A stretch of 64,000 bases of DNA from IMG/VR virus record IMGVR_UViG_3300035698_018106, positions 166,717 through 230,716 of that record. The stretch is one strand, 5' to 3'. The DNA is from a virus. Position 1 is the stretch's first letter, and each line of letters starts with the position of its first letter. The notes beneath the pieces were generated by a model. It ran no database searches. It was not told the origin of the DNA and saw only the letters and a list, made by a program, of their open reading frames with translations. The position numbers and the translations under genes are program-made. This document shows, one piece after another, positions 35,498-56,668 of the stretch.

Positions 35498-35513
35498 AAA
35501 GTATAATTAAATA

Positions 35514-37728: not shown

Positions 37729-37756
37729 TAAAAATTTAACATATAAAAATAAAACA

Positions 37757-38389
37757 ATGAGATTTAGTGAAGATTGGTATTCCCAAGCCGGACAAGATCA
37801 ATGGGTAACCGAATTCTTTAAAAATAAAAGAAATGGATATTTCTTAGATATTGGAGCCCATGATGGATGGGGAGATAACAACACATATTATTTAGAAAAA
37901 GAATTAGGATGGACAGGTATTTGTTTTGAACCTGGTATACAGGAATATACAAAATGTAAATCATTGCGAACCAAAGCTAAAGTTGTTCCAATAGCAGCAT
38001 GGAGTTCAGAAGCTACATTAAAATTTGGTACGTATGATGGATTAGCTAGACAAGTAACATCGGATGCAGATAAAATTGGATTTCCAGTTAAAGCTATGAC
38101 ACTTACTTCTATATTTAAAAAATATAATGTCCCAAAAATAATTGACTATATTAGTTTAGACGTAGAAAATTCTGAAATTGAAGCTCTAAAAGGATTTCCT
38201 TTTGATACACATATTGGAATTATATGGACAATAGAGCATAATCTATATAGAAATGATGGATGGCTAAAAAAAGGTATTAAAGAAATTATGTTAGCTAATG
38301 GCTATATTATGTACAAAGAAAATGTATCATGTAAAGATTCTAATTGGGAACCTTTTGAAGATTGGTATGTTCATAAAAATTATATTTAA
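37757..38389 (+). CDS. FkbM-family methyltransferase
   Basis: FLDIGAHDG, ICFEP and ISLDVENSEIEAL. Confidence 0.55.
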   Translation: MRFSEDWYSQAGQDQWVTEFFKNKRNGYFLDIGAHDGWGDNNTYYLEKELGWTGICFEPGIQEYTKCKSLRTKAKVVPIAAWSSEATLKFGTYDGLARQVTSDADKIGFPVKAMTLTSIFKKYNVPKIIDYISLDVENSEIEALKGFPFDTHIGIIWTIEHNLYRNDGWLKKGIKEIMLANGYIMYKENVSCKDSNWEPFEDWYVHKNYI

Positions 38390-38769
38390 TGATAGTAACT
38401 ATACCAATATCTATAGGAGAATTATATGATAAAATTTCTATTTTAGAAATTAAATCTGATATGTTATTTAATGATAGAGAAAAAGCAAATAATGTAGATT
38501 ATGAGTTAAGAGAATTATGTAAAATAGCTGAAAACTATCCTATAGATCCAGGCATATATATAAGATTATCATCTATGAATAAACGAATATGGGATATAGA
38601 AGATGGTATTAGAGAATGTGAAAAAGATAAACATTTTAAAGAACGTTTTATTGATTTGGCTAGAGCTGTATATTTAAATAATGATGAACGCGCAGAAATA
38701 AAAAGGCAAATCAATATTGAGTATAAATCAGAAATTATAGAAGAAAAATCATATGCAAACTATAAATAG
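38389..38769 (+). CDS. hypothetical protein
   Basis: ORF only. Confidence 0.35.
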   Translation: MIVTIPISIGELYDKISILEIKSDMLFNDREKANNVDYELRELCKIAENYPIDPGIYIRLSSMNKRIWDIEDGIRECEKDKHFKERFIDLARAVYLNNDERAEIKRQINIEYKSEIIEEKSYANYK

Positions 38770-38802
38770 TTACGCCAAAGTCCAATCAAATAACCCGAAT
38801 AT

Positions 38803-39474
38803 ATGAAAAAGTTAATTAGTTTCTCTTTATGGGGAAATGATCAAAAATACACAAGAGGTGCTATAGAAAATATACGCCTTCAAAAACAATTTTATAAAGG
38901 ATGGACATGTAGATTCTATATACATGCTAAATCAGTCCATCCTGATCTTATATCATTCATTCACCAAGAAGGTGGAGAAGTAATATTAAAATCAGATGAT
39001 CCAGGATTAGAAAATTACTCTACTAATGGTATTCACATGGGTTGGTTCTGGAGATTTGATGTAATGAATGATCCGGAAGTAGAAAGATTCATTATTAGAG
39101 ATATTGATAGTAGATTATCATTAAGAGAACGTGTATGTGTAAAAGATTGGGAAATGACTAAATCTCCTTTCCATATCATAAGAGATAATAAAATGCATGG
39201 GGTTCCTATGTTAGCAGGTACATGGGGTGCGACTAAAGAATTTTCTGATTCTATAGACTATAAAAATCTTTTAGACAAATTTATTAAAGATAATCCTGTT
39301 AATAATCCTGCTTATGGCGGTTATGATCAGTTCTTTCTAAGTACTATAATATATCCTCTTATAAAAAATAAAACATGTGTTCATGACGATTTCTTTAATT
39401 ATGAACCTCAAAAAAGAAAAATACCTCATATACGAACAAATAATGAATTCATAGGACAACCAATAAATATTTAA
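38803..39474 (+). CDS. hypothetical protein, possible GT-A glycosyltransferase (DxD-like RDID)
   Basis: RFIIRDIDSR and GGYDQFF. Confidence 0.3.
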   Translation: MKKLISFSLWGNDQKYTRGAIENIRLQKQFYKGWTCRFYIHAKSVHPDLISFIHQEGGEVILKSDDPGLENYSTNGIHMGWFWRFDVMNDPEVERFIIRDIDSRLSLRERVCVKDWEMTKSPFHIIRDNKMHGVPMLAGTWGATKEFSDSIDYKNLLDKFIKDNPVNNPAYGGYDQFFLSTIIYPLIKNKTCVHDDFFNYEPQKRKIPHIRTNNEFIGQPINI

Positions 39475-39477
39475 AAT

Positions 39478-39669
39478 ATGAAAACAACAGAACAAAGAAA
39501 ACTAGATAAAAATTTTAGAAAATTAGAAATTTTAGCGTCAAGAGATCCAAAACGCAATATGTGTCCTGAATCAGATTGTATATACGTTAAACATTCTGAA
39601 GATTCTGGAGTTTCTTATGAAAAATGTAATCGTTGTGGTAGAATTAAAAATGTTAATCATAGAGTATGA
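39478..39669 (+). CDS. small zinc-ribbon protein
   Basis: CPESDC...CNRCG. Confidence 0.3.
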   Translation: MKTTEQRKLDKNFRKLEILASRDPKRNMCPESDCIYVKHSEDSGVSYEKCNRCGRIKNVNHRV

Positions 39670-40409
39670 AAAAAATCTTAATATCTTTTGCTAATAAAAC
39701 ATATGCAAAAAGTTTAAATGAATTATATTCTACTGCTTCTAATCCAGGCGGGGTTGATTCAGTTAATGCTTATACATTCGAATGGATACAAACAACTGAT
39801 TTTTATAAAAAGAATAAATTTATACTAAATCAAAAAAAGGGTGCAGGTTTTTGGATATGGAAACCCTTCATAATCTTAGATGCTTTTAAAAATCTAGAAG
39901 ATGGTGATTTAGTGATGTATAGTGATGCAGGTCTTAATGTAATAGGAAACCTTAATCCATTATTTGAAGTGGCTCAGAATGAAGCTGATAATGGTAGAGT
40001 GTTATTCAGACTACCTCATGTAGGAGCAACACATCTAAATAAAATATGGACAAAACAAGATGCATTTGTATTAACTAATTGTAATGAACAAAAATACAAA
40101 GAAGCAGTAGTAGTAAATGGCGCTATATCAATATGGGAGAAAAACGATATTAATATAGATTTTCTAACAGAATGGCTTAAATATTTAAAAGATCCGAGAA
40201 TATCTACAGATATGGCAAATATATGTGGTCCTAATGATATCTCTTTTAAAGAACATAGACACGATCAATCTGTATTATCTTTAATGGCAAAAAAATATGA
40301 AGTTACTTTATATAGAGATCCTACTCAATATGGTAATGAAGAATTAAATATATTTACTAATTCTCTGTATCCACAATTATTCCACCATCATAGGAATTAT
40401 AAGCATTAA
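39666..40409 (+). CDS. hypothetical protein
   Basis: ORF only. Confidence 0.35.
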   Translation: MKKILISFANKTYAKSLNELYSTASNPGGVDSVNAYTFEWIQTTDFYKKNKFILNQKKGAGFWIWKPFIILDAFKNLEDGDLVMYSDAGLNVIGNLNPLFEVAQNEADNGRVLFRLPHVGATHLNKIWTKQDAFVLTNCNEQKYKEAVVVNGAISIWEKNDINIDFLTEWLKYLKDPRISTDMANICGPNDISFKEHRHDQSVLSLMAKKYEVTLYRDPTQYGNEELNIFTNSLYPQLFHHHRNYKH

Positions 40410-40809: not shown

Positions 40810-42561
40810 TTAGATTACTCCACCTGGATTAGTCTTGATAAATAGTGTCATATATTGTGTTTCTGGATGGAATCCTGCATCAACAAGAGCATATCTTGAT
40901 TTGATGATTACTTTAGGAGCACCAGTTCCTTCAGTGATAAGCTTAATAGATTCAGCCATTAAATAAGGGCAAAATACAGTTCCTGGCTCATCAGAAGCAC
41001 CTTTACGTCCAACTAATACTCTTGTATCTTCATAAACCATGTTAGGATCAACATAAACAGTCATTCCTGCAATAGTTCCTAAAGGATAAAGAGATCCATT
41101 AGTTTGTGTGAAAGTGTTTGCCATAGGCGAGAATGTGTATTGAGAGTTTGTTTGTAAAGCAGTAGCTAATTTAAGGTTAGTAACAATAAAGTTAGCAGGA
41201 CCTCTTCTACCTCTTTGAGCAACAACGTTACCAGCAGCAAGGATATCAGCCATAATTCTCTTGATTACAGTATCTTGATTCTCGAAAGAAGAAGTTGCAC
41301 CAGGAGCGTATATTTTATAACCTTTAAGATCCATAGATTCGTTTTGAACCGCACCATCATCTGGATAAGCATATGAAGGAGTTCCACCAATTGTATCAGC
41401 TTCTTTTGTTAAGTCAATATTTAAATTGATACCTTCAACAGCATTAGCTTTAATAGCGTTTTTCCAACCTAAACCGAAGATTCTTGAAAGGATGTGTTTG
41501 TTAATAGATTGAGAGATTTCGTTAATACCGGCATTTTCAACCATAGCAATAACATCAATACCCCATTGTTTGTTAAGATCTTTGATCTGTTCTTGAGTTA
41601 CAGAAACAGAAACTTGATAAGTTCCAACTTGAACGAATTTAGTAAATACCTGAAGACCTAATGCTCTTGGATATTCTAATTCTCCAACTCCTCTTTCCAT
41701 TGGTTCGTAAAGAGTAGTTCCTGATACGAAAGTACCAGCCCATTCATCACCATCAGTTGGACCTGCACCAGTAAAACCTTGTACTTGATCTTCTAATGTA
41801 GATATTAAAGAAGGATAAGAAGCAATACCACCAGTTGTTACACCGTCACCTGATACAGCAGTTGAACCATCAAATACATCAGCTAAATTAGCAGCAGTAC
41901 CTGTGAAACCACCAGTTTTGAACATACCGAATCCATCAATTCTAGATTTTCCGATATAAGTACCAGTTACTTCGTTTGTTGTACCGAAAGTAATAACATC
42001 ACCTTCAGCAATTGTAGATGCATCAACACCGTTTAAGTTTACCTTAAATGCGTGAGGAGCTTCATAAAGATTATAAGCAGGATTTCCTTTTCCAGCTGCA
42101 GTTGTTCCTTCATCTTTTGTAGGATTGGCAGTTGCAGGAGAATTAGCAGGTTGAGCACCATATGGTTGTTTTCCACCAGCATATACGTAATCTAAATAAG
42201 ATACAACACCTGTTGGACCTGGCATAGGAACTACGTTAACTATATCAAAACCTATTGTTCTTGCAGCAACCTGAAGAGCCATAGGAAGTAAAGCTGGCCA
42301 TTTGTCTCCAGAACCTTTTACACCGTCACCAGTAAATTGTGCGCCAGAAGTAGCAGCTTGACTTGCAGGCTGAGCGTTTCCAACACCAGGTACGTTATAA
42401 AGAGTTGCATATGGAGTAGATACACCACCCATTGCAGCTTCATTTAATGCATGATAATGAGCATACTTAGATACCCAACTTTGACGAGATTTAACAACTC
42501 CAACTTCCTCTAACATAGGATTCCATTTTGCTTGGATTTGAGCTTCATTTAATTGTTTCAT
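40810..42561 (-). CDS. major capsid protein, T4 gp23-like
   Basis: N-terminal AKWNPMLEE resembles gp23 NKWKPLLEG; IGFDIVNVVPMPGPTGVVSYLDYVY resembles gp23 IAFDICGVQPMNSPTGQVFALRAVY. Confidence 0.7.
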   Translation of the reverse strand: MKQLNEAQIQAKWNPMLEEVGVVKSRQSWVSKYAHYHALNEAAMGGVSTPYATLYNVPGVGNAQPASQAATSGAQFTGDGVKGSGDKWPALLPMALQVAARTIGFDIVNVVPMPGPTGVVSYLDYVYAGGKQPYGAQPANSPATANPTKDEGTTAAGKGNPAYNLYEAPHAFKVNLNGVDASTIAEGDVITFGTTNEVTGTYIGKSRIDGFGMFKTGGFTGTAANLADVFDGSTAVSGDGVTTGGIASYPSLISTLEDQVQGFTGAGPTDGDEWAGTFVSGTTLYEPMERGVGELEYPRALGLQVFTKFVQVGTYQVSVSVTQEQIKDLNKQWGIDVIAMVENAGINEISQSINKHILSRIFGLGWKNAIKANAVEGINLNIDLTKEADTIGGTPSYAYPDDGAVQNESMDLKGYKIYAPGATSSFENQDTVIKRIMADILAAGNVVAQRGRRGPANFIVTNLKLATALQTNSQYTFSPMANTFTQTNGSLYPLGTIAGMTVYVDPNMVYEDTRVLVGRKGASDEPGTVFCPYLMAESIKLITEGTGAPKVIIKSRYALVDAGFHPETQYMTLFIKTNPGGVI

Positions 42562-42649: not shown

Positions 42650-45040
42650 TTAAGAATTGTATGTTTTCATTTTAGCTTTTACTGCCTCTATATATGGATC
42701 TGATTTATCAGATGCTTGTTTAGATACTTGTTCAGAAGCTAAAACATTTTCATTAAGAGATACAGATTGTTGAGCTTTTAAACCAGTTTGCTGCCAGAAA
42801 TCTTCAATTTGATATTGATTATCTAGATTAAAGAATTCAGCTTTCGCGTTAATTGATTCTTTAATTTCGGTAGTAGCTGCTTCATATGTTTCTTTATAAG
42901 CTTTAGGAGCTAATTCTAACCAAAGTGGTTGACTAGGCGCATTAGATATTAAAGCGTTTTCCCATAATCTCATGATTGTTTCGGACTCAACTGTTGGAAC
43001 TTTGTTAACTGCAACGGAAACCTTTTGTTTATCAGATTCGCTTAGATTTGAAAAACTAGTTCTATTTTCACTACTTAAAAGTTGTGTAAATGGATATTCA
43101 GATTTAACTGTTTCATCTAGGGTTCTTTCTTTTTCTAAACCTTGTACGATAGTAGCTAATCTTTCATCTAATTTCTCTGATCTTGTTTTAAGAGATAAAG
43201 TTCTATTTATTTTTGATTCTTTTAATTTTCCAGCATTTGGAATTTTAGCAAGATTTTGATCACCTTTAGGGCCATCTCCACCAACTGTTTCTTTTCCACC
43301 TTTACCTGCTGTAGATGTAGTATCTAAAACAATATATTTCTTACCATTTTTACCAATAGCAATTTTTGATTCTTTTTTATTGTTTAATGTACTAAGACCT
43401 TTAGGAAGTCCACCTTTAAGAGATGATGCTGGTTTTTGGCTTCTGTTATCTCCGCCTTCTTTAGCAAATTGTTCAACTGAATCTTTTGCTTTAGTATCAT
43501 CTACTTTCCATTTTTTATTCTTATCTATTTTATCAGCTGTTAAAACATCTAAAGTTTTAAGTTTACCTTCAGTGAGTTTTTCATCTGAAATAGAATGTGT
43601 TTCTAACATTTTTTCGATTTTTGATTTTAATTTAGAATTCTTTTTAGATTCTGAAACTATTTCAATATAATCAATCATAGTTTTCGCATCATCTTTACTA
43701 ATAGCTCTTCCAAACATATCTTCTGTATAGTTCGCTGTTTTGTTTAAATTTTTAGCAATTGAGCCAGTCCATTCATGCATTGAATTAACAGCTTTAGCTT
43801 GTGATGAAACCCACTCATGCATATCATTAATTGCAGTTGCTTTTTCTTCACCCCATTCATTAAGCTTATTAACAGATTTTGCAATATCAGTTGTCCATTC
43901 ATTAACACCATTTAGCATTTCACCATTATGGTCTACTGTTTCAGCTATTGCATTTGTAACTTCTGCATTACTACCTACCCAATCCTGAGTAGCATTAAGA
44001 GTTTTAGCATTATAATCTACTGTTTCTACTAATTTTTTAGTTAAACAATAATGTTTGTTGTTTTTCTTTCCTAACGTATCAGCAAAGTTACCAATTTTGT
44101 TGGTATTCTTAGCAATGTCTTCAACCCAATTAATTGTGCCTTCTTGAATCTTACGCATCTTTTCGATATAACCCTTAATGGTTTTTAATTCACCACTGTC
44201 AGATATTCCGTTATTTTCTAGAATAGCATGTTCAACATTGTTAAGTCTTTGAGATAATTCTTCTACTACTTTGTTAAAATTAGATGACCACTCATTTAAA
44301 GCGGCATCGTCTGTAGTACCATTTTTCTTCATAATTTCTTCATTTTTTTGAATTAAAGACTTAGCTTCTTCACGTAATTTTACTGATGGAAACTTTTCAG
44401 TAACATCAATAATAGAAATGTTTTCATTTATTATGCCTAATTCAGAATTAATATTATCTTCCTCCATTTTATCAGAAGATTTATTAAAACTCTCTAAAAG
44501 ATTTGCTATTCTTGCCATTTTAGGATCAGAATTTGCACTTTCATGAATTTGATGTAATTGAGCATTTTCAAACCCTGGCTTAGCAACTAAGTCATAGGTA
44601 TAAATTTGCTGTATTTCAACAGATTTATCTTCATTAACAGAACCTGCGGCTCTTGAAGATATAGAAAGTGGAACTCCTGCTTCTAATAAAGATTTAGCAA
44701 TTTTTCCTTTAGGGGTGCCATCAAGAATTTCAATTCGTCCTAAGATTTGTCTTTTTCCTTGATCATACCATAATTCATCGATTTTATGAGATACATTAGT
44801 TAAAGATACTTCAAATCTCTCCGGATGATCTAACTCACCAAGAAGATTACCATTATCAATATCTTTCTTTAAATACTCTAAATGAGGAAGATATTCTCTT
44901 TCCTCATAAACACGACCATTACGGTTTTCAACACCAAATTCGGCGAAAACACCTTCAAGGATAGTTCTACCATCCTTACTAATCTTTTTGAGATTTTGTG
45001 AAGATCTCTCAAGAATTAATACTTGTTTTCCGCTCATCAT
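42650..45040 (-). CDS. prohead protease (gp21-like N-terminal domain) fused to a long scaffold/core-like region
   Basis: N-terminus NRNGRVYEE...GELDHP...ILGRIEILDGTPKGKIAK...LSISSRAAGSV resembles T4 gp21. The remaining ~600 aa are charged and coiled-coil-like with about 5 EW...AK..N repeats. Confidence 0.6.
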   Translation of the reverse strand: MMSGKQVLILERSSQNLKKISKDGRTILEGVFAEFGVENRNGRVYEEREYLPHLEYLKKDIDNGNLLGELDHPERFEVSLTNVSHKIDELWYDQGKRQILGRIEILDGTPKGKIAKSLLEAGVPLSISSRAAGSVNEDKSVEIQQIYTYDLVAKPGFENAQLHQIHESANSDPKMARIANLLESFNKSSDKMEEDNINSELGIINENISIIDVTEKFPSVKLREEAKSLIQKNEEIMKKNGTTDDAALNEWSSNFNKVVEELSQRLNNVEHAILENNGISDSGELKTIKGYIEKMRKIQEGTINWVEDIAKNTNKIGNFADTLGKKNNKHYCLTKKLVETVDYNAKTLNATQDWVGSNAEVTNAIAETVDHNGEMLNGVNEWTTDIAKSVNKLNEWGEEKATAINDMHEWVSSQAKAVNSMHEWTGSIAKNLNKTANYTEDMFGRAISKDDAKTMIDYIEIVSESKKNSKLKSKIEKMLETHSISDEKLTEGKLKTLDVLTADKIDKNKKWKVDDTKAKDSVEQFAKEGGDNRSQKPASSLKGGLPKGLSTLNNKKESKIAIGKNGKKYIVLDTTSTAGKGGKETVGGDGPKGDQNLAKIPNAGKLKESKINRTLSLKTRSEKLDERLATIVQGLEKERTLDETVKSEYPFTQLLSSENRTSFSNLSESDKQKVSVAVNKVPTVESETIMRLWENALISNAPSQPLWLELAPKAYKETYEAATTEIKESINAKAEFFNLDNQYQIEDFWQQTGLKAQQSVSLNENVLASEQVSKQASDKSDPYIEAVKAKMKTYNS

Positions 45041-45136
45041 TTTTATTTATTTTTACTTTATTTTATATATTAGCAAAATAATAGATAAGAGGAGCGGACA
45101 GTGCACGATAAGAAATAGTGCTCTAGAAAAAAGCAC

Positions 45137-45170
45137 AAAAAAATTGGAGTCTAAACAGATTAGACTCCAA
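45137..45170 (-). terminator. hairpin ttggagtcta-aacagat-tagactccaa followed by T7 on the minus strand
   Basis: 10-bp perfect stem; downstream of the patatin gene stop. Confidence 0.55.
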
Positions 45171-45207
45171 TTAATTATAAATTATTAAAATGTTATTGTA
45201 ATGTTAT

Positions 45208-46245
45208 TTAGAACAATGTAGAATTATACTTAGAATCATTTTTAATTAATTCTTTTGCTAAATTATCTAAAAATTCTTTATGAGATGAAATATAATTGAA
45301 TGCATCTTGACTCAATCTTATCATATTTGTGTTTGATGAATCTTGGCCATCAGTGTTTCCTAAAACTATTTCAGGATTAATTCTAATGTAATTTGAATTT
45401 GCATTATAAGAAGCAAATATTTTTTCTATTTGATATGCAGTAACATCTCCAACACCTTGTAGTAGAATATTTATAAGAGGCATGAACCATCTTATAAGTC
45501 CCCAACCTTTTATTTTCTCATAAGGATAAGTTTGTAATTTAGATAATCCTGTACCAAATGATAACATTAATATGTTCGTTGGATTTATATTTTTAAATTC
45601 ATCAACTAATTCTTTAGTTTTACTAGCTTCTATATATGCTATAAGTGATGGATTATTAGCGAAAACTCCACCATCAATAACAGTATTTAAATTAACACCA
45701 TCTCTGAAAAAAGAAGGTTTAAATATATATGGGATTGAAGTTGATCCTCTTACTATATCCTTAATAAATAGATTTGCATATTTTTTACTACTATCTTTAT
45801 TAGTGTATATAACTGCTTTTCTTTTGCCTGTATCGTATCCTGTAAATGCACATGGAACTAAAAGTTCGCTCATTTTCCAATGATCTAGTTTTTTAACTAG
45901 CTCATCATTTATATATTTGCTGGAATATTTAGGACCTATTAATCCCCATAAAGTTTTAATCTTTCGTTTAAAACTACTTTTAAATACATTTTCTGATAAA
46001 GCTATATAGCTTTGTACTATATCATCCATTTTATATGCAGGTCTACCTTTTTCATCAGGGACTATTATCATTGAAGAAATAATAGATCCTGTAGATGTTC
46101 CAGCACAGAAATCTAGATAATCCGATATTCTAGTATTTTTATTTTGACTTAACTCTATAAGTTTGTTTTCGATATATGCTAATATAATAGCCGGCAATAT
46201 ACCTTTAACACCTCCACCATCAATAGATAGTATTTTTAATTTCAT
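45208..46245 (-). CDS. patatin-like phospholipase
   Basis: DGGGVKG oxyanion motif, GTSTGS (GxSxG) and a later DGGVFANNP (catalytic Asp). Confidence 0.75.
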   Translation of the reverse strand: MKLKILSIDGGGVKGILPAIILAYIENKLIELSQNKNTRISDYLDFCAGTSTGSIISSMIIVPDEKGRPAYKMDDIVQSYIALSENVFKSSFKRKIKTLWGLIGPKYSSKYINDELVKKLDHWKMSELLVPCAFTGYDTGKRKAVIYTNKDSSKKYANLFIKDIVRGSTSIPYIFKPSFFRDGVNLNTVIDGGVFANNPSLIAYIEASKTKELVDEFKNINPTNILMLSFGTGLSKLQTYPYEKIKGWGLIRWFMPLINILLQGVGDVTAYQIEKIFASYNANSNYIRINPEIVLGNTDGQDSSNTNMIRLSQDAFNYISSHKEFLDNLAKELIKNDSKYNSTLF

Positions 46246-46263
46246 ATCGGATAATTATTTTTA

Positions 46264-46995
46264 TTATATATCCAATGTGATGGTCGCTATTTGTTTGCGA
46301 TTATTATCTACCTTTATTAAAAAATTATCATCTATTTGAAATAACTTTACTGTTCCCGGAGCAGTATGACCAAACACTTGGTTAATATTAGGATAAGGAT
46401 CTTTAATTAACTCATTATAATCTGCCCATAATGGACCAGGAGTACCCATGCCTCTTCTGCCGGCGCCAATCTTATATATGATTTCATGATTTATCATGAA
46501 ATTTAATAATTCATGAATCTCATATTTACTAATATCCCCATTTGTTAGTTTATATAATATACTAGTATCATCTTTAGTTGGATTTAATATATAATTATTA
46601 TAATATGTTAACGTTAATCCTGCATGTGTTACTAAAGTATATTTTTGTGTATTAAGATTAGTATATCCCCATGCTATTTTAAATAAATTTTTGTGTTCTT
46701 CAAATATGGCTTTATAATCTATTCTAGCATGCCAATTAAAGCCTTTTATTCCACTCATATCATGAATATATGCCCAATCATGATTACCCAATAAAAGTTC
46801 AACTTTATCTAAATGTGCTAACTTAAAATCGATTATTTTTTTTAAATTATGTATTATTTCAACTGGTCGATGTATATAACTATCTACATAATCTCCAACA
46901 AAAATAATTTTATCTAATTTAGATATATCATATAACTCAACTATTTTGATCCAATCTTCTCTTCCATGAACATCCCCAAAAATTAATATTTCCAT
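46264..46995 (-). CDS. calcineurin-like metallophosphoesterase
   Basis: GDVHG, GDYVD and GNHD motifs. Confidence 0.7.
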   Translation of the reverse strand: MEILIFGDVHGREDWIKIVELYDISKLDKIIFVGDYVDSYIHRPVEIIHNLKKIIDFKLAHLDKVELLLGNHDWAYIHDMSGIKGFNWHARIDYKAIFEEHKNLFKIAWGYTNLNTQKYTLVTHAGLTLTYYNNYILNPTKDDTSILYKLTNGDISKYEIHELLNFMINHEIIYKIGAGRRGMGTPGPLWADYNELIKDPYPNINQVFGHTAPGTVKLFQIDDNFLIKVDNNRKQIATITLDI

Positions 46996-47465
46996 TATGC
47001 CTTTTTTAATTGTTTTGCTAGCGCAACATTTTTATATTTATGAAGATATGTAATTTCTTCAGTACACCATTCTGGTGGGGTAAATTCTTTAGCATGTTCT
47101 TCAGATATAAATTCTATTTCACATGTTACAAAATCATGATCATTATAAATATCTACTTCAAATCTTGTATCTTGTTCAATAAATGTATACCTAGTCTTAT
47201 TAATAGAACTAACACACCTAGCGATAGTATATATATATTCATCCTCTGATATGAAATACCCGATTTCTTCTCTGGATAAGAAACCTTTTGATTTTAATTC
47301 TAGAATAAAAATTTCATTATTAATGCTTCTTACTCTAATTAGCCAATCATCTTTAATCGTATTAAGATAATATTGAGTAATTACTCTAGTCTCTATTGAA
47401 TCAATAGACTTTATCATAGTTTGATACATCTTAATATCTACTAACCATTTTCTTTCTATTTCCAT
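46995..47465 (-). CDS. CYTH-domain protein (triphosphate tunnel metalloenzyme; CyaB/ThTPase-like)
   Basis: N-terminal MEIERKWLV (ExExK signature) and later acidic residues EVDIY...CEIEF. Confidence 0.6.
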   Translation of the reverse strand: MEIERKWLVDIKMYQTMIKSIDSIETRVITQYYLNTIKDDWLIRVRSINNEIFILELKSKGFLSREEIGYFISEDEYIYTIARCVSSINKTRYTFIEQDTRFEVDIYNDHDFVTCEIEFISEEHAKEFTPPEWCTEEITYLHKYKNVALAKQLKKA

Positions 47466-47467
47466 AA

Positions 47468-47680
47468 TTATAATGTTATTGATGTAGATTTACGTAATAT
47501 TATAATAATGCCACCATATTTATTATAATCGTCAGCTGTTACGGATACAGATTGAACTATATTATCAACATATTCCCATCCATCATCAAGTTGTGCTTGT
47601 AAACTATTATTTATATCTTCATTTAATGAAGAAGCCGAACTACCTGTTCTTACTAAAAGAAAAGATTTATATTTATACAT
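47468..47680 (-). CDS. hypothetical small protein
   Basis: ORF only. Confidence 0.3.
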   Translation of the reverse strand: MYKYKSFLLVRTGSSASSLNEDINNSLQAQLDDGWEYVDNIVQSVSVTADDYNKYGGIIIILRKSTSITL

Positions 47681-47960
47681 ACCACATTGGTTTAGTTATA
47701 TTTTCTTTTATTTTTCTCCTTATAGCTATTGATTCATAAGAATATAATATATTATGACACAATGCATTATAAGCATCATCAAAAGAATAAAATATTTGAT
47801 TATTAGTTTTATCTTTTTTATCTTCTAAAAAATAAATTCCAGATTGTTTGTACTTTAAATAATATGTATGATGCTTAAATAACCAATGATATTCATCAAC
47901 ATGTTTATAATATGTGATGGAATAGCGTTTTCTAACTATTTTTAGTAATTTTATTTGCAT
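47673..47960 (-). CDS. hypothetical protein
   Basis: ORF only. Confidence 0.3.
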   Translation of the reverse strand: MQIKLLKIVRKRYSITYYKHVDEYHWLFKHHTYYLKYKQSGIYFLEDKKDKTNNQIFYSFDDAYNALCHNILYSYESIAIRRKIKENITKPMWYV

Positions 47961-49363
47961 TAATATCGTCTTTTACTATAATTGGTAGTTGGCTTATCAT
48001 GAATATCATTATTACTAGCCCATAGATTAATGCCAATAGAAATAATTAATGCTAAAATATAAATGAAGATGATATTACCTGTAGTAGGATCAACTGTTAT
48101 ATAAGAAAATTCTTCAAAACTCCTTTTCTCAAATTTATATAAATTTTTATCTAGATATTTATAATATTCATTTAATGTATTAGCATTAAATAAAGGAGTC
48201 TCGCTTTTCTTTATTTTTATAATATTTTGTCTTTGTATATTTAATGGTAATACTGGAGGTAATAAGTTAGTATCTATTCCTGTTGCATCTGCGATAGTTT
48301 TCTTCATAGATGTATTAATCATTGGCACAGCTACCGGAAGTGACTGACCTTTGTCTGTAGTCACTGAGTATTGGTACATATCTAATACTTTAGATCCAAC
48401 TTCTGTTGTTAATGTCCCGGACAAAGCCCATGAAAAAGCATATGACCATTTTATTTCATCACCTGTTTTACCTATACAGACTACCAATTCATTTTTATTA
48501 CCCTTAACCCAATAATTTTCTTGATATTGAGCAGTAATTGAAGGTTTATCTTCAAATACTAATATCCATAGTCTCATTTTATTAGAAGGTCCAAATTTAG
48601 CATTTAATCTTCTGAATTTATCTTGAGTTTCTTCTGTGATATTATCTCCTAATATGGTGTTAGATTTAAATGTATGCGTTTTTTCCGGATATTTATATAA
48701 ACCCATGCTATCAGCTTCTTCTTCAGATACTATCGCAATATTAAATACAGATAAATCTGATGCTTTTATTCGATTTTCATATTTATGCTTTGAGAAAACA
48801 CCTTTTCTTGTGTTTTCTGTATTAGGCCATGTAGTTTTATATACATTAGATGTTTGCCCTACATTTGTTCCATTAAATTTTGTTCCGGATGATCCATAAC
48901 TTCTAGTACGCGGAGAATAATTTCTTCTTGTTTTTATTACTTTTTTACCTGAAGCGTATAAACTAACTAGCGAATCATGATATGATTCATCCATAGTATG
49001 TGTATTTCCTAGATTAGTTTTACAATACCATTTTGGATAATGATCATCTTGATAAGAACAATCATATGTGCGGGTACAATACTCTGTATTACCTTTTGAA
49101 TCAGTTCCACAAGCATATGATTCTGTACATGTTTTTGTTATCCACTCATTCCATGGTTCTTCTTCGTAAATATCTGTGATAGTTTCACCCCAGTATTCTG
49201 TAAATGTCACTGCTGCGTGTTCTATTATAGCTTTGGCACCTATAATTGCACCAAATGTTACAATAAAAGGTATGAAGAATTCCCACCATTTATAAGCTGC
49301 TTTATCTCTTAGATAAAAAATGATAGTTACTATTAATACTATGAATAATGATCCGTATATCAT
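47960..49363 (-). CDS. membrane protein with a Cys-rich extracytoplasmic domain
   Basis: N-terminal TM helices and a C-terminal TM helix; Cys-rich central region. Confidence 0.4.
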   Translation of the reverse strand: MIYGSLFIVLIVTIIFYLRDKAAYKWWEFFIPFIVTFGAIIGAKAIIEHAAVTFTEYWGETITDIYEEEPWNEWITKTCTESYACGTDSKGNTEYCTRTYDCSYQDDHYPKWYCKTNLGNTHTMDESYHDSLVSLYASGKKVIKTRRNYSPRTRSYGSSGTKFNGTNVGQTSNVYKTTWPNTENTRKGVFSKHKYENRIKASDLSVFNIAIVSEEEADSMGLYKYPEKTHTFKSNTILGDNITEETQDKFRRLNAKFGPSNKMRLWILVFEDKPSITAQYQENYWVKGNKNELVVCIGKTGDEIKWSYAFSWALSGTLTTEVGSKVLDMYQYSVTTDKGQSLPVAVPMINTSMKKTIADATGIDTNLLPPVLPLNIQRQNIIKIKKSETPLFNANTLNEYYKYLDKNLYKFEKRSFEEFSYITVDPTTGNIIFIYILALIISIGINLWASNNDIHDKPTTNYSKRRY

Positions 49364-49431
49364 AATTTTTTGAATAAAAAAGTGTTAAGATATTGCTATC
49401 TTAACACTTTTGGTTAATTTTATAAATGTTT

Positions 49432-50789: not shown

Positions 50790-51278
50790 TTAAATATTTA
50801 CGTTTGAATTTGTTATTTCTAAATCATAATCTTTAAAATCGATAAATCTTACATCATCAAATTTAAGTCTTTCAAGTATTCTATCATAATCCCATTTTCT
50901 GTCTTTCTTTAATCTTTCTATTCTAACCTCTACAAGTGGGTTCATATAAATAACAAAACAAGTTGTTCTATCTTTGGTATTAATATTCTTTATACCATCA
51001 GTTTCCATTATAAATAATGACATATTATTCCATTCATGTAAACCTGTACCATATCTATAACTATTATATTCTATATGTTCATAGAATGCACCATTTGATA
51101 TTCTTAAAGAAAATTCATCTTCAGTAATAAAATTATAATCAACACCGTTTACTTCACCAGTTCTTTGAGGTCTGGTTGTATATGATATATCACATTTAAA
51201 TCCTCTTTCTTCTAATTTTTTTCTTAAGAATGTTTTTCCACTAGCTGTTCTTCCTACAAGAATTATTCTTTTATTCAT
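50790..51278 (-). CDS. guanylate-kinase-like P-loop kinase
   Basis: GRTASGKT Walker A and SYTTRPQRTGEVNGVDYNFIT (GMP kinase signature STTRxxRxGExxGxDYxF). Confidence 0.55.
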   Translation of the reverse strand: MNKRIILVGRTASGKTFLRKKLEERGFKCDISYTTRPQRTGEVNGVDYNFITEDEFSLRISNGAFYEHIEYNSYRYGTGLHEWNNMSLFIMETDGIKNINTKDRTTCFVIYMNPLVEVRIERLKKDRKWDYDRILERLKFDDVRFIDFKDYDLEITNSNVNI

Positions 51279-51510: not shown

Positions 51511-51576
51511 TTTTTAAAAAATATGTTAATAAAACTCATTAAAATATCAAAAGATAATTTAACCTCAACTAAAAAG

Positions 51577-51648
51577 TACTTATAGAGAGAATCGAACTCT
51601 CATCACATGGGTATAAGCCGTGCATTCTAACCGTTGAACTATATAAGT
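51577..51648 (-). tRNA. tRNA-Ile (anticodon TAT)
   Basis: Acceptor acttata/tataagt, T-arm gagag-ttcgatt-ctctc, anticodon loop ctTATac; one C-A mismatch in the anticodon stem. Confidence 0.55.
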
Positions 51649-51656
51649 ATTTAATG

Positions 51657-51740
51657 CGGAAGATAAGGGAATCGAACCCATGAGCCACTTTCATGACCAC
51701 AGATTTCCAATCTGCTACATTACCACTCTGCCAATCTTCC
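51657..51740 (-). tRNA. tRNA-Ser (anticodon GGA), class II
   Basis: Acceptor ggaagat/atcttcc, anticodon arm gcaga-ttGGAaa-tctgt, long variable arm, T-loop ttcgatt. Confidence 0.55.
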
Positions 51741-51833
51741 ATTAATTTTGATATGCGCAATATGCACATCTATTATTAGATGTTAACATAGCACCACATT
51801 TCCAACAATAAGTTATATCTATCTTATACATTT

Positions 51834-52106
51834 TTATAGTTTTTTAAAGTTGCATGCTTTACATTGATCATCTAAACATATATCTAAATCATCATCTTCT
51901 CCATTCAATATACCATATGATTTAACCATATATTTACAATCTCCATACCCTAGATTATTTTTAAAATATAAAGGACAAACATTTGTATTAAATGCCGATA
52001 CAAATTGTTTAGCTTCATTATGCCATACTTTAGAAATCTTCCCTGTAAATGTATAACAATACATACCCTTTGGTATCTTTTTCTTTATTTTTCTTGGTAT
52101 TCTCAT
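51834..52106 (-). CDS. hypothetical Cys-rich protein
   Basis: ORF only. Confidence 0.3.
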   Translation of the reverse strand: MRIPRKIKKKIPKGMYCYTFTGKISKVWHNEAKQFVSAFNTNVCPLYFKNNLGYGDCKYMVKSYGILNGEDDDLDICLDDQCKACNFKKL

Positions 52107-52309
52107 TTAAACATTAGTTTAGATATAGATTCTGATAATATTATACAATCGAAACATTCTTTAGTTTTAGTTACTTTGTATAATTCATTCATTTTTTTCA
52201 ATAAATCTTTAACAGCTTTTTGACCTTCCTTTGTTATTTTTTTAGCTAACTCCGGATCATATGATAAACTTTTAGATTTGATTGATTTTTTATCTTCTAT
52301 ATCTTCCAT
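52103..52309 (-). CDS. hypothetical small protein
   Basis: ORF only. Confidence 0.3.
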   Translation of the reverse strand: MEDIEDKKSIKSKSLSYDPELAKKITKEGQKAVKDLLKKMNELYKVTKTKECFDCIILSESISKLMFK

Positions 52310-52329
52310 ATTTATTTTAAATTAATTAG

Positions 52330-52407
52330 AACCTCAGGTGGGAATCGAACCCACATTTTCATCCATTTATGCGTCTCTGATTTCGAAGACCAGGCCAATA
52401 CTGAAGC
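52330..52407 (-). tRNA. tRNA-like element with a canonical T-arm and acceptor but a non-canonical core (possible pseudo-tRNA)
   Basis: Perfect T-arm gtggg-ttcgatt-cccac; acceptor gcttcag/ctgaggt has 2 G-U pairs; no clean 7-nt anticodon loop found. Confidence 0.3.
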
Positions 52408-52596
52408 TTATTTCTTTTTATAATGTTCTTCATCTATTACAGAACCATGGGGCCACCTATCCCATTCATCAGGTCTAAACCAATTAAAATGAAGATACCA
52501 ACTACCACCTTTCCATTTACGATAAATTTTAAAATTCGTCTTATTATTTAATGCAATAAAACAAATTATAATTATCAAATAATATAATACTATCAT
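52408..52596 (-). CDS. small membrane protein
   Basis: TM segment IVLYYLIIIICFIAL. Confidence 0.3.
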   Translation of the reverse strand: MIVLYYLIIIICFIALNNKTNFKIYRKWKGGSWYLHFNWFRPDEWDRWPHGSVIDEEHYKKK

Positions 52597-52886
52597 TAAT
52601 GTTTTTTTATAAAAGAAACATACTTGGTCACTTTTTCATGATCCAAGAGTTTCTCTATTGTATTATAATTTCTACCTAAATCCTTTTCAGATATTAAGTT
52701 ATGAACTTCTTTATGACATAAATATTTACAAATATAAGCGCCTTTATTCATTTCTTCCTTAGAGAAATTCTTTTTAAACCATTTATTAGAATGATTTGTT
52801 TTTGGTATTAAATGATGAAATGTACATAATCTCTCGATCTTGCATAATTCACATTCAATTATTCTTCCACTTTTCATACCAATCAT
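52596..52886 (-). CDS. HNH endonuclease
   Basis: CELC...HHLIPK...N...CKYLCHKEVH (HNH with Zn-binding Cys pairs). Confidence 0.5.
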   Translation of the reverse strand: MIGMKSGRIIECELCKIERLCTFHHLIPKTNHSNKWFKKNFSKEEMNKGAYICKYLCHKEVHNLISEKDLGRNYNTIEKLLDHEKVTKYVSFIKKH

Positions 52887-53043
52887 TATCTCCTAAGTTT
52901 AAAAAGAAATCTTTTCTTTGAGTATGAAATTTGCTTAAACAATCTTTACAACATGCAAAATCTCCATCATAATTAGCTAATACCATTTTTAACTCATTAT
53001 CAAACGGATTATTATTACATTTTTCATTTACACATTTAATCAT
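52855..53043 (-). CDS. small Cys-rich protein
   Basis: ORF only. Confidence 0.3.
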   Translation of the reverse strand: MIKCVNEKCNNNPFDNELKMVLANYDGDFACCKDCLSKFHTQRKDFFLNLGDNDWYEKWKNN

Positions 53044-53052
53044 AATAAAAAA

Positions 53053-53538
53053 TTATCTATTCAATAGTTCTTTTACTATTACATTTGCTTCTTTCATATC
53101 AATACCATCAGACATAGATAAATTCTTAAGTTCTATCATAACTTTCCCCATATCTCTCATTCCAGAAAAATTGCATGCAGTTATAATTCCAGATATAAGT
53201 GTTCTAAGTTGGAAAGTATCTATTTTAGTTGGCATCCATTGATCTAATACAGATACTTCGTAATCATTACCCATTTCAATAGCCTTATCATTTAATGATT
53301 TAATAATTTTTAATGATTCTTTATCACTGATTTCTTTATTAACTCTTGTGAATTCACCCATCACAAATCTTAAATAATCTCTTTTTGCTGTATCACCACT
53401 TTTCATGGCAATTTTCATCTGATCTTGAACTTCTTGTTGTATCATTTTTCTTTTGTTTAATGTGCGGAAGCGAAGGGAATCGAACCCCCAATACGGTATT
53501 AACGTATTACTGCTTTTCAAGAGCAGGTCTTCGTCCAT
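53053..53538 (-). CDS. GatB/YqeY-domain protein
   Basis: C-terminal SGMRDMGKVM matches the YqeY-family GMKDMGKVM. Confidence 0.5.
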   Translation of the reverse strand: MDEDLLLKSSNTLIPYWGFDSLRFRTLNKRKMIQQEVQDQMKIAMKSGDTAKRDYLRFVMGEFTRVNKEISDKESLKIIKSLNDKAIEMGNDYEVSVLDQWMPTKIDTFQLRTLISGIITACNFSGMRDMGKVMIELKNLSMSDGIDMKEANVIVKELLNR

Positions 53539-53551
53539 TCAGACCACTTCC
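53465..53551 (-). tRNA. tRNA-Ser (anticodon TGA), class II
   Basis: Anticodon arm ctgct-ctTGAaa-agcag, variable-arm hairpin atacg/cgtat, T-loop ttcgatt, acceptor ggaagtg/cgcttcc. Confidence 0.6.
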
Positions 53552-53796
53552 TTTTTATTTATATCATCAAAAGGTAAAAACCAGCTCCTTATAAATGAGA
53601 TTTTCTTTCGATTTGGATGATATTTCAATTGTACTATATCTAATGTATGTGCATATCCCAAACCAGTTATTGTGTAATAAATAATTGGAACAATAAAAGT
53701 AAATATTGATAATACTAATAATGTAGTTAATATATAATACTTTATCAAATTAATTTTGTCATATTTCATAATAAATTTATTTATATGTGATGACAA
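53539..53796 (-). CDS. small membrane protein
   Basis: TM segment; the ORF's 3' end overlaps the tRNA-Ser (TGA) call at 53465..53551, so the true end is uncertain. Confidence 0.25.
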   Translation of the reverse strand: MSSHINKFIMKYDKINLIKYYILTTLLVLSIFTFIVPIIYYTITGLGYAHTLDIVQLKYHPNRKKISFIRSWFLPFDDINKKEVV

Positions 53797-54001
53797 GGTT
53801 TCTTAAATTTATAAGAATCTAGAATTTCTTCCTTTAATTTATTTGCTTTAATACAATTAATCTTTTTTAACTCATTATATTTACTCCATCGTTCATCATC
53901 ATTAATATTAATCTTCTTTCTCTTCATTACGAATATTTATTTAATGCGATTGTTGAATTAATAATACATGTATCAATTATCTGTTATTTTTTAAAAAAAT
54001 G

Positions 54002-54074
54002 AGCCTCATACCGGGATCGAACCGATGACATCTTCATTACAAATGAAGTGCTCTACCAACTGAGCTAATGAGGC
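54002..54074 (-). tRNA. tRNA-Thr (anticodon TGT)
   Basis: Clean cloverleaf: acceptor gcctcat/atgaggc, D-arm gctc-agttggta-gagc, anticodon arm cttca-ttTGTaa-tgaag, T-arm atcgg-ttcgatc-ccggt. Confidence 0.7.
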
Positions 54075-54080
54075 ATTTTG

Positions 54081-54152
54081 AGCACCTAATTGGAATCGAA
54101 CCAATATCACTAGATTACAAAACTAGTATAATAAACCATTATACTATAGGTG
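54081..54152 (-). tRNA. tRNA with an ambiguous anticodon (TGT with a U-U closing pair, or TTG in a 9-nt loop)
   Basis: Acceptor gcaccta/taggtgc, T-arm attgg-ttcgatt-ccaat; anticodon region ctag-ttttgtaat-ctag. Confidence 0.45.
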
Positions 54153-54157
54153 CTTAT

Positions 54158-54230
54158 GAGCTCTTTACCAGGATCGAACTGGTTACCTCTTCCATACCAA
54201 GGAAGTGCTCTACCAAATGAGCTAAAAGAG
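54158..54230 (-). tRNA. tRNA-Thr (anticodon GGT)
   Basis: Acceptor gctcttt/aaagagc, D-arm gctc/gagc, anticodon arm cttcc-ttGGTat-ggaag, T-arm accag-ttcgatc-ctggt. Confidence 0.65.
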
Positions 54231-54236
54231 CAGTTT

Positions 54237-54319
54237 GCGGAAGATGAGGGAATCGAACCCACGCACCATTTCTGATGTACAGTTTAGCAAACTGCTGCAT
54301 TACCGCTCTGCCAATCTTC
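54237..54319 (-). tRNA. tRNA-Ser (anticodon GCT), class II; paralog of 51657..51740
   Basis: Acceptor ggaagat/atcttcc, 3-bp D-stem, anticodon arm gcagt-ttGCTaa-actgt. Confidence 0.55.
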
Positions 54320-54387
54320 CATTGATTCCGTTAATTGTCTCGAATTAATACCCACGGAATAAAGGTAATCATTATTATAGAGAACGT

Positions 54388-54732
54388 TTAGAACTTTCCA
54401 ATTACTCCAACTTTATTGTATACTTTATCTTTTCTATATAAACCTTTCATCCACTTATATAAATAGACAAATATATTTCGTTCCGGAGTTTTTATTACGT
54501 CCCTAATCATATCCAATATCATCCACGAAGAAATCCACCATTGTATAATAATTGATATAATATCCCATATATTTGGTTCAATAGTTCCATTACTTATAAA
54601 TATTATTCCTGCAATAGAAAATATAAACATTGCAATCATCCACAAAACAAAAAATATTGCCATAACAAAAATACATATTACTAGTAAATTTCCTAAAATA
54701 AACCAAAGCGTTTTAATCAAGAATTTTTTCAT
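54388..54732 (-). CDS. membrane protein (3 TM helices)
   Basis: Hydrophobic segments. Confidence 0.35.
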   Translation of the reverse strand: MKKFLIKTLWFILGNLLVICIFVMAIFFVLWMIAMFIFSIAGIIFISNGTIEPNIWDIISIIIQWWISSWMILDMIRDVIKTPERNIFVYLYKWMKGLYRKDKVYNKVGVIGKF

Positions 54733-54747
54733 TTTTTCATTTTAAAA

Positions 54748-54842
54748 ACATAAATTAGCGGAGGGTGAAGTAATTGAAACCTGTACGCTAACGTACCCCT
54801 GGGGTTCAAGCCCAGTTTGAGACCTTCCCGGCACCCTCCTTA
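54748..54842 (+). ncRNA. GC-rich structured element: 8-bp outer stem (ggagggtg/caccctcc) enclosing hairpins gtacg-ctaa-cgtac and ctggg-gttcaag-cccag (T-arm-like)
   Basis: Intergenic GC island in AT-rich DNA; nested perfect stems seen in sequence; does not fold as a canonical tRNA. Confidence 0.35.
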
Positions 54843-55029
54843 TTTGAAGATTAATCTTCAAATGTTTTATCTAAACCTTTCCCTATAGATTTCAAGCCTT
54901 TTTCTGTATAAGATTCTTCACCATCCAAAGCTTTCGAACCTAAAGTTGCAACGTCTGCAACTACTCCAACACTAGTTTTAATTAATCCTGTAGTAACATC
55001 TAATAATCCACCAAATAATCCCATATTTT

Positions 55030-55263
55030 TTATCTTTCTATTTTTCTATATGAATAAATACCATTTCTTTTTTTTCTTCTAAAAACATCGTAAATAACGT
55101 TTTGTTTATTTTCATATCCAATAAATGGATTCCACTCATGTTTAATTCCAATTACACCTTCTCTAACTAGATACCATTTATTTTTCGGCCATACTATTAT
55201 AGTAATAATAACAATAAATAATATGATACTAATGACTAACCAAACAAAACTTACTTTTTCCAT
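55030..55263 (-). CDS. small membrane protein
   Basis: TM segment VWLVISIILFIVIITIIVW. Confidence 0.3.
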   Translation of the reverse strand: MEKVSFVWLVISIILFIVIITIIVWPKNKWYLVREGVIGIKHEWNPFIGYENKQNVIYDVFRRKKRNGIYSYRKIER

Positions 55264-56348: not shown

Positions 56349-56398
56349 ATCTTAAAATTATTATTTGTTATAATAATTCCAATCTTCATGGTTTTTAT

Positions 56399-56647: not shown

Positions 56648-56668
56648 ATCTATAGTTTAAATTTTAAA

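Follow-up and report, generated by a model that had tools for sequence, protein, structure and literature searches.

A predicted patatin-like lipase gene with a head-type promoter-like box in a variable slot upstream of the prohead protease gene of an apparently Lak-related megaphage

Within a 64,000-nucleotide stretch of viral DNA (positions 166,717 to 230,716 of the IMG/VR record IMGVR_UViG_3300035698_018106; the whole stretch is hereafter the window), three co-directional open reading frames (ORFs) were found on the minus strand, which encode, in the order of transcription, a NeuTTM-like CYTH/triphosphate tunnel metalloenzyme (156 amino acids (aa), 47465..46995), a calcineurin-like metallophosphoesterase (MPE) resembling the lambda phosphatase and the phosphoprotein phosphatases (PPP) (243 aa, 46995..46264), and a patatin-like lipid acyl hydrolase of the Pat17/CapV fold (345 aa, 46245..45208), the last assigned from Pfam, PDB and AlphaFold2 (AF2) comparisons. 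The CYTH stop and the MPE start share one base (TAATG), and 18 nt separate the MPE and patatin genes. These coordinates confirmed the tightly packed, co-directional arrangement given for this interval in a preliminary description of the DNA; the three domain assignments made there were borne out by Pfam scores that all exceeded the curated cut-offs, and the catalytic signatures listed there as intact could be read in the translations and were conserved in the family alignments. We also agree with that description that a patatin/MPE/CYTH trio is not a described phage module. Its placement of the trio after the head genes, in contrast, holds in plus-strand coordinates only; read along its own strand, the trio stands directly upstream of a gene for a prohead protease (S77/S80) fused to a scaffold-like region (796 aa, 45040..42650 (-), assigned from Pfam, PHROG and synteny), which is followed by the gene for a gp23-type major capsid protein (583 aa, 42561..40810 (-), assigned from Pfam and comparison with Lak phages).

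On the other side, the CYTH and MPE genes are the second-last and last cistrons of an operon that starts with the gene for a 467-aa membrane protein (47960-49363 (-), assigned from its transmembrane segments) and continues with orf95 (47673-47960 (-)) and orf70 (47468-47680 (-)); the cistrons before CYTH (47468..49363 (-)) overlap or lie 2 nt apart, and the PHROG match among them was phrog_2087. A palindromic hairpin with a 15-bp stem flanked by A- and T-runs was observed ahead of this operon at 49378-49411, between the genes for a 174-aa virion-protein-like product and the 467-aa membrane protein, and could terminate transcription on both strands. The capsid protein of the window shares 46% identity with its counterpart in the Prevotella Lak megaphages, and the relatives of the window (hereafter the clade) are metagenome contigs of up to 405 kb with capsid proteins 71-89% identical to that of the window. 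A DNA-level search against known phages gave no match to the window, and the contig index held no record of the exact patatin sequence. Judged from sequence, the window belongs to a Lak-related megaphage.

The 345-aa protein matched Pfam Patatin (PF01734) at 2e-21, and a PHROGs family for patatin exists, with function unknown. Its motifs D9-GGG-V-K-G15, G49-T-S51-T-G53 and D191-G-G aligned with those of Pat17, and the catalytic Ser and Asp, whose conservation the preliminary description had named as decisive, were both present in the window protein and kept in 106 of the 115 full-length clade homologues. In a PDB sequence search, the best solved relative was the plant Pat17 (2.6e-38, 135 bits), followed by CapV (1.9e-15, 60 bits). 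The AF2 model (predicted local distance difference test (pLDDT) 88) showed the alpha/beta patatin fold, with a template modelling (TM) score of 0.86 and a root-mean-square deviation of 2.5 A to Pat17, and a TM score of 0.83 to AbCapV. Pat17 (1oxw, 4pk9; 26-27% identity), the best match in both sequence and structure, is a constitutive lipid acyl hydrolase without a regulatory domain; it differs from the phage protein in being a eukaryotic vacuolar storage protein and in lacking a phage-specific C-terminal tail. This tail, Y-x-T/S-x-L-F (45208-45250 (-) in the window), was observed in 14 of 120 clade patatins, in the closest phage sub-clade only, and none of 80 cellular or 72 other viral patatins had it; it is kept in catalytically dead variants and may be a docking peptide. 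The window protein is basic (isoelectric point (pI) 9.2), and hydropathy analysis revealed neither a signal peptide nor a transmembrane segment. The 80 closest cellular patatins are 31-39% identical to it and come mostly from Bacteroidota and Cyanobacteria.

Patatins are common in giant eukaryotic viruses, and examples are also on record from WO phages and one marine megaphage. Like the window protein, gp45 of Wolbachia phage WO is encoded by a phage, consists of a single patatin domain in ~300-345 aa (30-32% identity across 95% of the length) and has its gene on the border of a module of structural genes, and a membrane-crossing role has been proposed for it without experiment (PMC3173496). 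WO differs in being temperate and in infecting an intracellular bacterium; its patatin gene lies at the end of the tail module rather than beside the head protease gene, and no MPE or CYTH neighbour has been reported. The patatins of Mar_Mega_1 and LR745206, filed only as auxiliary metabolic or virulence genes, are likewise found in megaphages of more than 600 kb (PMC9723777), and the copy in LR745206 shares 34% identity with the window protein. The megaphage clade concerned is a different one (30% identity of the capsid protein), and the LR745206 patatin gene lies ~110 kb from the capsid gene. A second, independent association of a patatin with head genes was observed in a different gp23-type phage, the capsid protein of which is 27-28% identical to that of the window: in two loci (L083 691-6805 and L084 3351-9167), the gene for a 303-aa patatin stands directly upstream of a 546-aa ORF, which by size and position looks like the portal gene, and protease, scaffold and capsid genes follow.

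The 243-aa ORF matched Pfam Metallophos (PF00149) at 5.4e-9 and, weakly, PHROG 246 'NinI-like' at 5e-5. It carries the motifs G-D8-V-H10-G, G-D35-Y-V-D38 and G-N71-H72-D as well as H124 and H210, and D8, H10, D35, N71, H72, H124 and H210 were invariant in all 122 full-length homologues aligned. In a Foldseek search with the AF2 model (pLDDT 94.5), the top match was the lambda Ser/Thr phosphatase NinI (1g5b, TM ~0.5); calcineurin/PP1/PP5, LpxH, ApaH and PnkP followed at TM ~0.5 or lower, with LpxH, ApaH and PnkP near the score of 1g5b. The MPE has in common with NinI and the PPP/ApaH group its size as a phage-encoded protein of ~220-240 aa and the GDxHG and GNH[DE] motifs; it differs in that the similarity is low (17% identity, with TM at only ~0.5) and in that, while the first and third PPP signatures are present, the second reads GDYVDS without the Arg-Gly of GDxVDRG. 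Lak and LR7565xx megaphages also encode MPE homologues, at a distance of more than 100 kb from their capsid genes, tblastn detected no patatin in Lak phages, and ~65 other viral loci on large contigs (L106-L170) contained an MPE homologue with no patatin nearby.

The 156-aa ORF matched Pfam CYTH at 3.2e-5 (24.3 bits against a cut-off of 23.2), phrog_6660 (function unknown) at 2.7e-23, and NeuTTM of Nitrosomonas europaea (PDB 2fbl/3typ) at 3e-15. With NeuTTM (~155 aa) it shares the ExExK motif, here E2-I-E4-R-K6, and the Arg/Lys/Glu tunnel residues; E2, E4, K6, Y33, R44, R46, R65, E67, K90, R92, E103, D105, E116 and E118 were invariant across 8 phage CYTH homologues. It differs from NeuTTM in its phage context, and a triphosphatase substrate is predicted for it by likeness. 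Some CYTH proteins are class IV adenylyl cyclases, which constitute the small separate cluster 10 of the family, whereas NeuTTM belongs to triphosphatase cluster 2 (PMC8233210). In a phmmer search of the PDB (E<=1), NeuTTM was the sole CYTH relative returned, and the remaining solved CYTH proteins, with the class IV cyclases among them, went unmatched; by this comparison the protein resembles the NeuTTM triphosphatase rather than a nucleotide cyclase. Phage records with similar CYTH genes were dominated by Aeromonas phages. In three annotated loci (two T4-like Aeromonas phages and one Pseudomonas phage), the neighbours were small hypothetical or early-type genes, once tk, and neither an MPE nor a patatin was annotated near CYTH; a literature search found no paper tying phage CYTH proteins to anti-defence. 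The lambda-like phosphatase and CYTH genes are ordinary phage accessory genes.

In order to assess the distribution of the three genes, relatives were reached with alignments, as IMG/VR scans with each of the three single proteins gave zero matches. The first set of loci had been collected via the patatin and via the MPE, and the matches listed by a generic protease-centred scan were mostly from other phage groups; for a sample drawn independently of both genes, IMG/VR was instead searched with a clade-specific DNA pattern, the back-translated protease peptide LLGELDHPERFEV, which occurs in every clade locus with a protease N-terminus and in 1 of 79 other protease loci. Among the 28 informative contigs of this sample, all three genes stood upstream of the protease gene in three (one of them decayed), CYTH and MPE in two, MPE and patatin in four, the patatin alone in three and the MPE alone in ten, and none was seen in six. 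The MPE was thus present in 19 contigs, the patatin in 10 and CYTH in 5; the MPE occurred without the patatin in 12 and the patatin without the MPE in 3. With metagenome loci included, seven lineages carry all three genes. This synteny check revealed a mosaic, which is at odds with the idea that the three genes form one functional set. In other phage groups, none of the three genes lay within 8 kb of the protease gene in 79 loci among the matches listed. Because presence and absence are mosaic at this site in the clade and the genes are absent from it in the 79 loci of other groups, we consider the site just 5' of the protease gene to be a variable slot of this one clade, the protease gene being its invariant downstream neighbour across the clade loci.

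Other inserts were found at the same place. A GIY-YIG/NUMOD3 homing endonuclease gene occupies the slot of the patatin in L092 (6892-7518), and in L013 (8001-11343) a split patatin is followed by a 2.3-kb insertion. Homing-endonuclease-type genes (GIY-YIG/NUMOD3, TnsA-like) were observed in and around the slot, including L008 2705-3568 and 14830-15555, and such elements may drive gene flux there. In L001 (4296-5213) and L009 (6310-7173), a DUF7487 gene was observed in the position of CYTH just upstream of the MPE, and the DUF7487 gene of the window lies 20 kb away at 24620-25540 (-). Outside the clade, neither an MPE-patatin nor a CYTH-MPE pair was found in the 80 bacterial patatin, ~65 viral MPE, 72 viral patatin and 3 CYTH loci inspected, and the recurrent neighbours scanned around the 80 closest cellular patatins were housekeeping genes.

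The patatin gene is flanked by signals of its own. A promoter-like box, ATATATAATAAAAA (46258..46271 (-)), lies 26 nt before its ATG and overlaps the MPE stop codon, and a similar box, ATATATAAAATAAA (45057..45070 (-)), lies 30 nt before the ATG of the prohead protease gene. The consensus, ATA[T/A]ATAAAATAAA, was found 16-51 nt before the ATG and ahead of the protease and capsid genes in every lineage, and it resembles the late promoter of T4 (TATAAATA). A simple version of the box gave 42 matches in the window, 13 of which fell within 60 nt upstream of a gene start as against ~2 expected from position. Boxes of the ATATATAAAATAAA / TATAAATA kind were observed 16-51 nt before 13 gene starts, including those of the protease, capsid and M23 peptidase genes (first bases, for example, at 63436, 62462, 45070, 42599, 23781(+), 23761, 19223, 14639 and 6753, on the minus strand unless marked); in a PHROG scan, most of the other box-bearing genes had no family. 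When a position weight matrix trained on 35 instances upstream of protease and capsid genes was used to score other upstream regions, a box preceded the patatin gene at empirical p<=0.05 in 12 of 14 lineages, 21-32 nt from the ATG (p 0.014 in the window). The corresponding figures were 2 of 16 lineages for the MPE and 1 of 7 for CYTH, at inconsistent positions, and no box stood upstream of the window CYTH gene. A scan for sigma-70 promoters showed no enrichment (72 matches against 80 expected).

Behind the gene, a terminator-like hairpin with a 13-bp stem, a 5-nt loop and a T-run (45133..45172 (-)) lies 36 nt after the patatin stop. The terminator that the preliminary description had placed at the end of the unit was thereby recovered: its 13-bp stem from 45172..45142 with the T-run was the best site of a 12-kb scan, which yielded 9 terminator-like sites as against 3.1 expected, and its folding energy was -25.5 kcal/mol. 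A hairpin with a T-run, different in sequence, was also found between the patatin and the next gene in L001, L004, L007, L008, L009, L011, L012 and L016. Between the patatin stop and the terminator of the window lies a direct repeat, TAACA-N6-TAACA (45191..45206 (-)), and a TAACA(T)-N5-6-TAACA(T) repeat occupies the equivalent place in 9 relatives (L001, L004, L007, L008, L009, L011, L012, L015 and L016), lying between the patatin stop and the protease box, before the hairpin in some and after it in others. This repeat was not enriched elsewhere in the window and may be a regulator binding site.

If the box is a promoter and the hairpin a terminator, as we infer, the locus would comprise two units, namely an operon of the 467-aa membrane protein, orf95, orf70, CYTH and MPE genes and a one-gene patatin unit, because a box stands upstream of the patatin gene and a terminator behind it, and near-overlapping cistrons lie ahead. 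The patatin unit resembles a phage moron in having a predicted box in front, a hairpin and T-run behind and a place between conserved genes (here the operon and the head genes), and in being missing from 18 of the 28 contigs. Classical morons are known from temperate phages, in which the prophage expresses them; the patatin unit differs in that its box is that of the head genes and in that the megaphage is apparently lytic.

On these observations, we favour, at somewhat better than an even chance, a reading in which the trio consists of three separate accessory genes, which occupy a hot spot of gene flux directly 5' of the gene for the head-maturation protease, with a late, membrane-acting patatin. 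All three ORFs are probably active enzymes. The patatin would have been acquired from stand-alone patatins of the Bacteroidota/cyanobacterial type and would act as a Ser-Asp acyl hydrolase, which we infer to be made late, in the cytoplasm, and to deacylate phospholipids of the inner membrane, so that the membrane breaks down and phage release is helped. CapV of the cyclic-oligonucleotide-based anti-phage signalling system (CBASS), a cyclic GMP-AMP (cGAMP)-activated protein of similar size with the same Ser-Asp dyad and fold (TM 0.83 to AbCapV, 8zr9), is basic as well and attacks the inner membrane from the cytoplasmic side, killing by hydrolysis of membrane phospholipids (PMC12480259). The patatin would thus use the killing chemistry of CapV, with phage transcription rather than a cyclic nucleotide setting the timing, and its role would parallel the one in exit or entry suggested for the WO phage patatin (PMC3173496). 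The MPE would be a phosphoesterase of the lambda-phosphatase kind, with phosphoproteins or nucleotide polyphosphates such as diadenosine tetraphosphate (Ap4A) as substrates, and the CYTH protein a NeuTTM-like tripolyphosphate/nucleoside triphosphate (NTP) triphosphatase, both serving nucleotide and phosphate housekeeping of the phage independently of the patatin. The lysis or membrane-remodelling role earlier proposed for the whole trio would accordingly be kept as the leading guess for the patatin and given up for the MPE and CYTH proteins.

Several observations weigh against this reading. The late-promoter interpretation draws on the similarity and position of the motif, and the substrates of all three proteins are predictions. 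CYTH, MPE and patatin genes keep their order whenever they are present, with CYTH always just upstream of the MPE, and MPE and patatin genes that occur together are always adjacent and in the same order, the pair being intact in L096/L097 even though it is inverted relative to the head genes; a functional link and shared descent followed by loss explain this constancy equally well. Moreover, Ser51 and/or Asp191 are lost in 9 of the 115 full-length clade patatins, which occupy the same slot (P0105, P0077 (L251-L254), P0069, P0072, P0104, P0106, P0013 (L001-L003), P0102 and P0111), the substitutions being Ser to Ala or Gly and/or Asp to Asn, Ser, Thr or Trp; both residues are kept in 80 of 80 cellular homologues (Fisher p = 0.011). 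Six of these dead patatins constitute one clade, with GTAAG and N-x-N replacing GTSTG and DGG, and are 51-69% identical to one another, sharing no more than 50% identity with any intact member. The other three lost their residues independently, the closest intact protein being a different one in each case, so that catalysis was lost at least four times. Two members of the six were located, on 10 and 5 contigs, between an intact MPE gene with CYTH upstream and the protease gene. The pairwise ratio of nonsynonymous to synonymous substitutions (dN/dS) within this dead clade was ~0.14, a rough value since dS is saturated at 1.6. Because the dead patatins are retained at full length under constraint, catalysis is apparently dispensable in some lineages; these variants fit poorly with a purely enzymatic role of the patatin and are the main evidence against it.

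The preliminary description had suggested an anti-defence or nucleotide-signalling module, patatin lipases being effectors of nucleotide-signalling defence systems. As an alternative, the trio might be a CBASS-like or anti-CBASS unit, in which the CYTH protein makes a cyclic or linear nucleotide, this signal activates the patatin, and the MPE degrades the signal. Such a scheme would suit the tight co-directional packing, the constant CYTH-MPE-patatin order in the seven lineages with all three genes, the CapV fold of the patatin and the existence of class IV adenylyl cyclases in the CYTH family, but we regard it as very improbable. CYTH was missing from 23 of the 28 contigs, including 7 of the 10 that bear the patatin gene; the class IV cyclases are a small separate CYTH cluster (PMC8233210), and the sole solved CYTH relative found is a triphosphatase, the catalytic residues of which are kept; and the patatin gene has a promoter-like box to itself. 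The patatin also failed as a CBASS effector, scoring 111.7 bits with the NCBIfam equivalog CBASS_lipase (NF041079; cut-off 200). A PADLOC match (2.9e-45, 153 bits) was rejected as a sign of CBASS membership, since cellular patatins in non-CBASS contexts reached 195-236 bits with the same model, the neighbours of these higher-scoring Flavobacterium and cyanobacterial patatins being M15 peptidase, HAD, aldolase, Crp and MlaE genes. The cGAMP contacts F147, K149 and D159 of AbCapV map to A144, I146 and Y156, so that three of the four mapped contacts are unconserved, the mapping being approximate (alignment at ~20% identity) and the contact set of AbCapV also including R279, outside the mapped four; the fourth, E207, corresponds to E206, which is kept in 80 of 80 cellular homologues as well and is therefore undiagnostic. 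Finally, no CD-NTase, SMODS or cyclase family was found among the Pfam matches of window ORFs of at least 50 aa (64 kb), nor in the gene tables of the related loci.

Two further alternatives concern the patatin itself. It might travel with the virion, packaged along with the head or attached to the particle, and act on host membranes at entry, an idea that draws on the position of its gene directly 5' of the prohead protease gene under a box of the same type as the head genes, on the L083/L084 patatin upstream of a putative portal gene and the protease, scaffold and capsid genes, on its basic pI, on a C-terminal tail that could dock, and on the entry or exit role proposed for the WO phage patatin (PMC3173496). 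We consider this unlikely, given that the protein has no N-terminal propeptide or targeting sequence, its catalytic glycine loop starting from residue 9, and that the gene is missing from about two-thirds of the clade members and so is not a core part of the virion. A role by binding rather than hydrolysis, whether as a signal-soaking or filament-poisoning mimic of host CapV-type effectors or as a membrane tether of proheads, would account for the repeated loss of catalytic residues in the clade as against none in the cellular homologues, for the persistence of the six-member dead clade in the same slot beside intact MPE and CYTH genes at low dN/dS, and for the apparent co-regulation of the patatin with the head genes. 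Set against it, 92% of the clade patatins, that of the window included, keep all catalytic residues, the cGAMP contacts are unconserved, and the substitution ratio is rough owing to saturation, and we judge such a role unlikely as well. The stronger proposal, that the patatin is mainly a non-lipase, namely a CapV look-alike co-regulated with the head genes that works without catalysis and intercepts cyclic-nucleotide signals or poisons the filaments of host patatin effectors just as capsid proteins are appearing, or tethers or releases proheads at the inner membrane, appears less likely still; the maintained dead variants would be its clearest form. The remaining alternative is salvage of phosphorus and lipid, in which the patatin deacylates phospholipids, the MPE cleaves the phosphodiesters so produced and the CYTH protein hydrolyses tripolyphosphate, supplying phosphate and fatty acids to a large genome, which, judged from relatives, may exceed 500 kb. 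By family chemistry all three reactions release or expose phosphate, the Mar_Mega_1 patatin has been filed as an auxiliary metabolic gene (PMC9723777), and the lipid pyrophosphatase LpxH is among the fold matches of the MPE; this alternative is nevertheless improbable, as the MPE fold is nearest to protein phosphatases and the glycerophosphodiesterase GpdQ was absent from the top 50 matches, late timing of the patatin would be ill-suited to feeding DNA synthesis, and the three genes are inherited independently.

Hosts of the Lak-related lineage are probably Bacteroidota, because genes with the Por_Secre_tail domain of type IX secretion occur in two relatives and because the closest cellular patatins are mainly from that phylum. 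The window has 27% G+C and 11 tRNA genes. Under the standard code its coding density is 92%, and the stops of 101 called genes were TAA in 83, TGA in 15 and, rarely, TAG in 3; stop-codon recoding has reportedly been seen in Lak phages. The tRNA set (Ile, Ser x3, Thr x3, Met, His x2 and Arg; 51576-63941 (-)) is interleaved with small ORFs, and amid it lie genes for a Tpt1/KptA RNA 2'-phosphotransferase (55251-55775 (-)), a YqeY-like protein (53053-53538 (-)) and a DUF4031 protein (56001-56348 (-)); a guanylate kinase gene is located at 50790-51278. The gene at 62473-63414 (-), which follows a promoter-like box, encodes 313 aa with an M23 peptidase domain at the C-terminus; the product may be an endolysin or a cell-wall hydrolase associated with the virion. 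The sole plus-strand block of the window (25702-40409 (+)) is a glycan-biosynthesis island with genes for two GT25 glycosyltransferases, a GT10 fucosyltransferase, FkbM methyltransferases and a cytidylyltransferase and a match to an AGT-like DNA glucosyltransferase; similar glycan genes were also found downstream of the capsid gene in relatives, and a nucleotide-sugar epimerase/dehydratase gene lies on the minus strand at 13562-14611. Pfam matches in 129-24623 (-) included a SET domain, a C5 cytosine methylase, thymidylate synthase, thymidylate kinase, an Rv2179c-like 3'-5' exoribonuclease, DUF5661 and DUF4494.

For further work, the claim of a three-enzyme signalling module would best be dropped, which would spare experimental effort, and the box consensus may aid the annotation of late genes in genomes of this clade. 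The new elements are the head-type regulation suggested for the patatin in this clade of uncultured megaphages, the recurrence of a patatin beside head genes in L083/L084, and the maintenance of dead variants. Bacteroidota phage lysis systems are, to our knowledge, poorly characterised. If the favoured reading of a phage-timed membrane lipase among independent accessory genes is true, the patatin would be a type of lysis or egress aid that tailed phages have not so far been shown to use; if instead the dead variants act by binding, they would represent a new kind of counter-defence or assembly factor.

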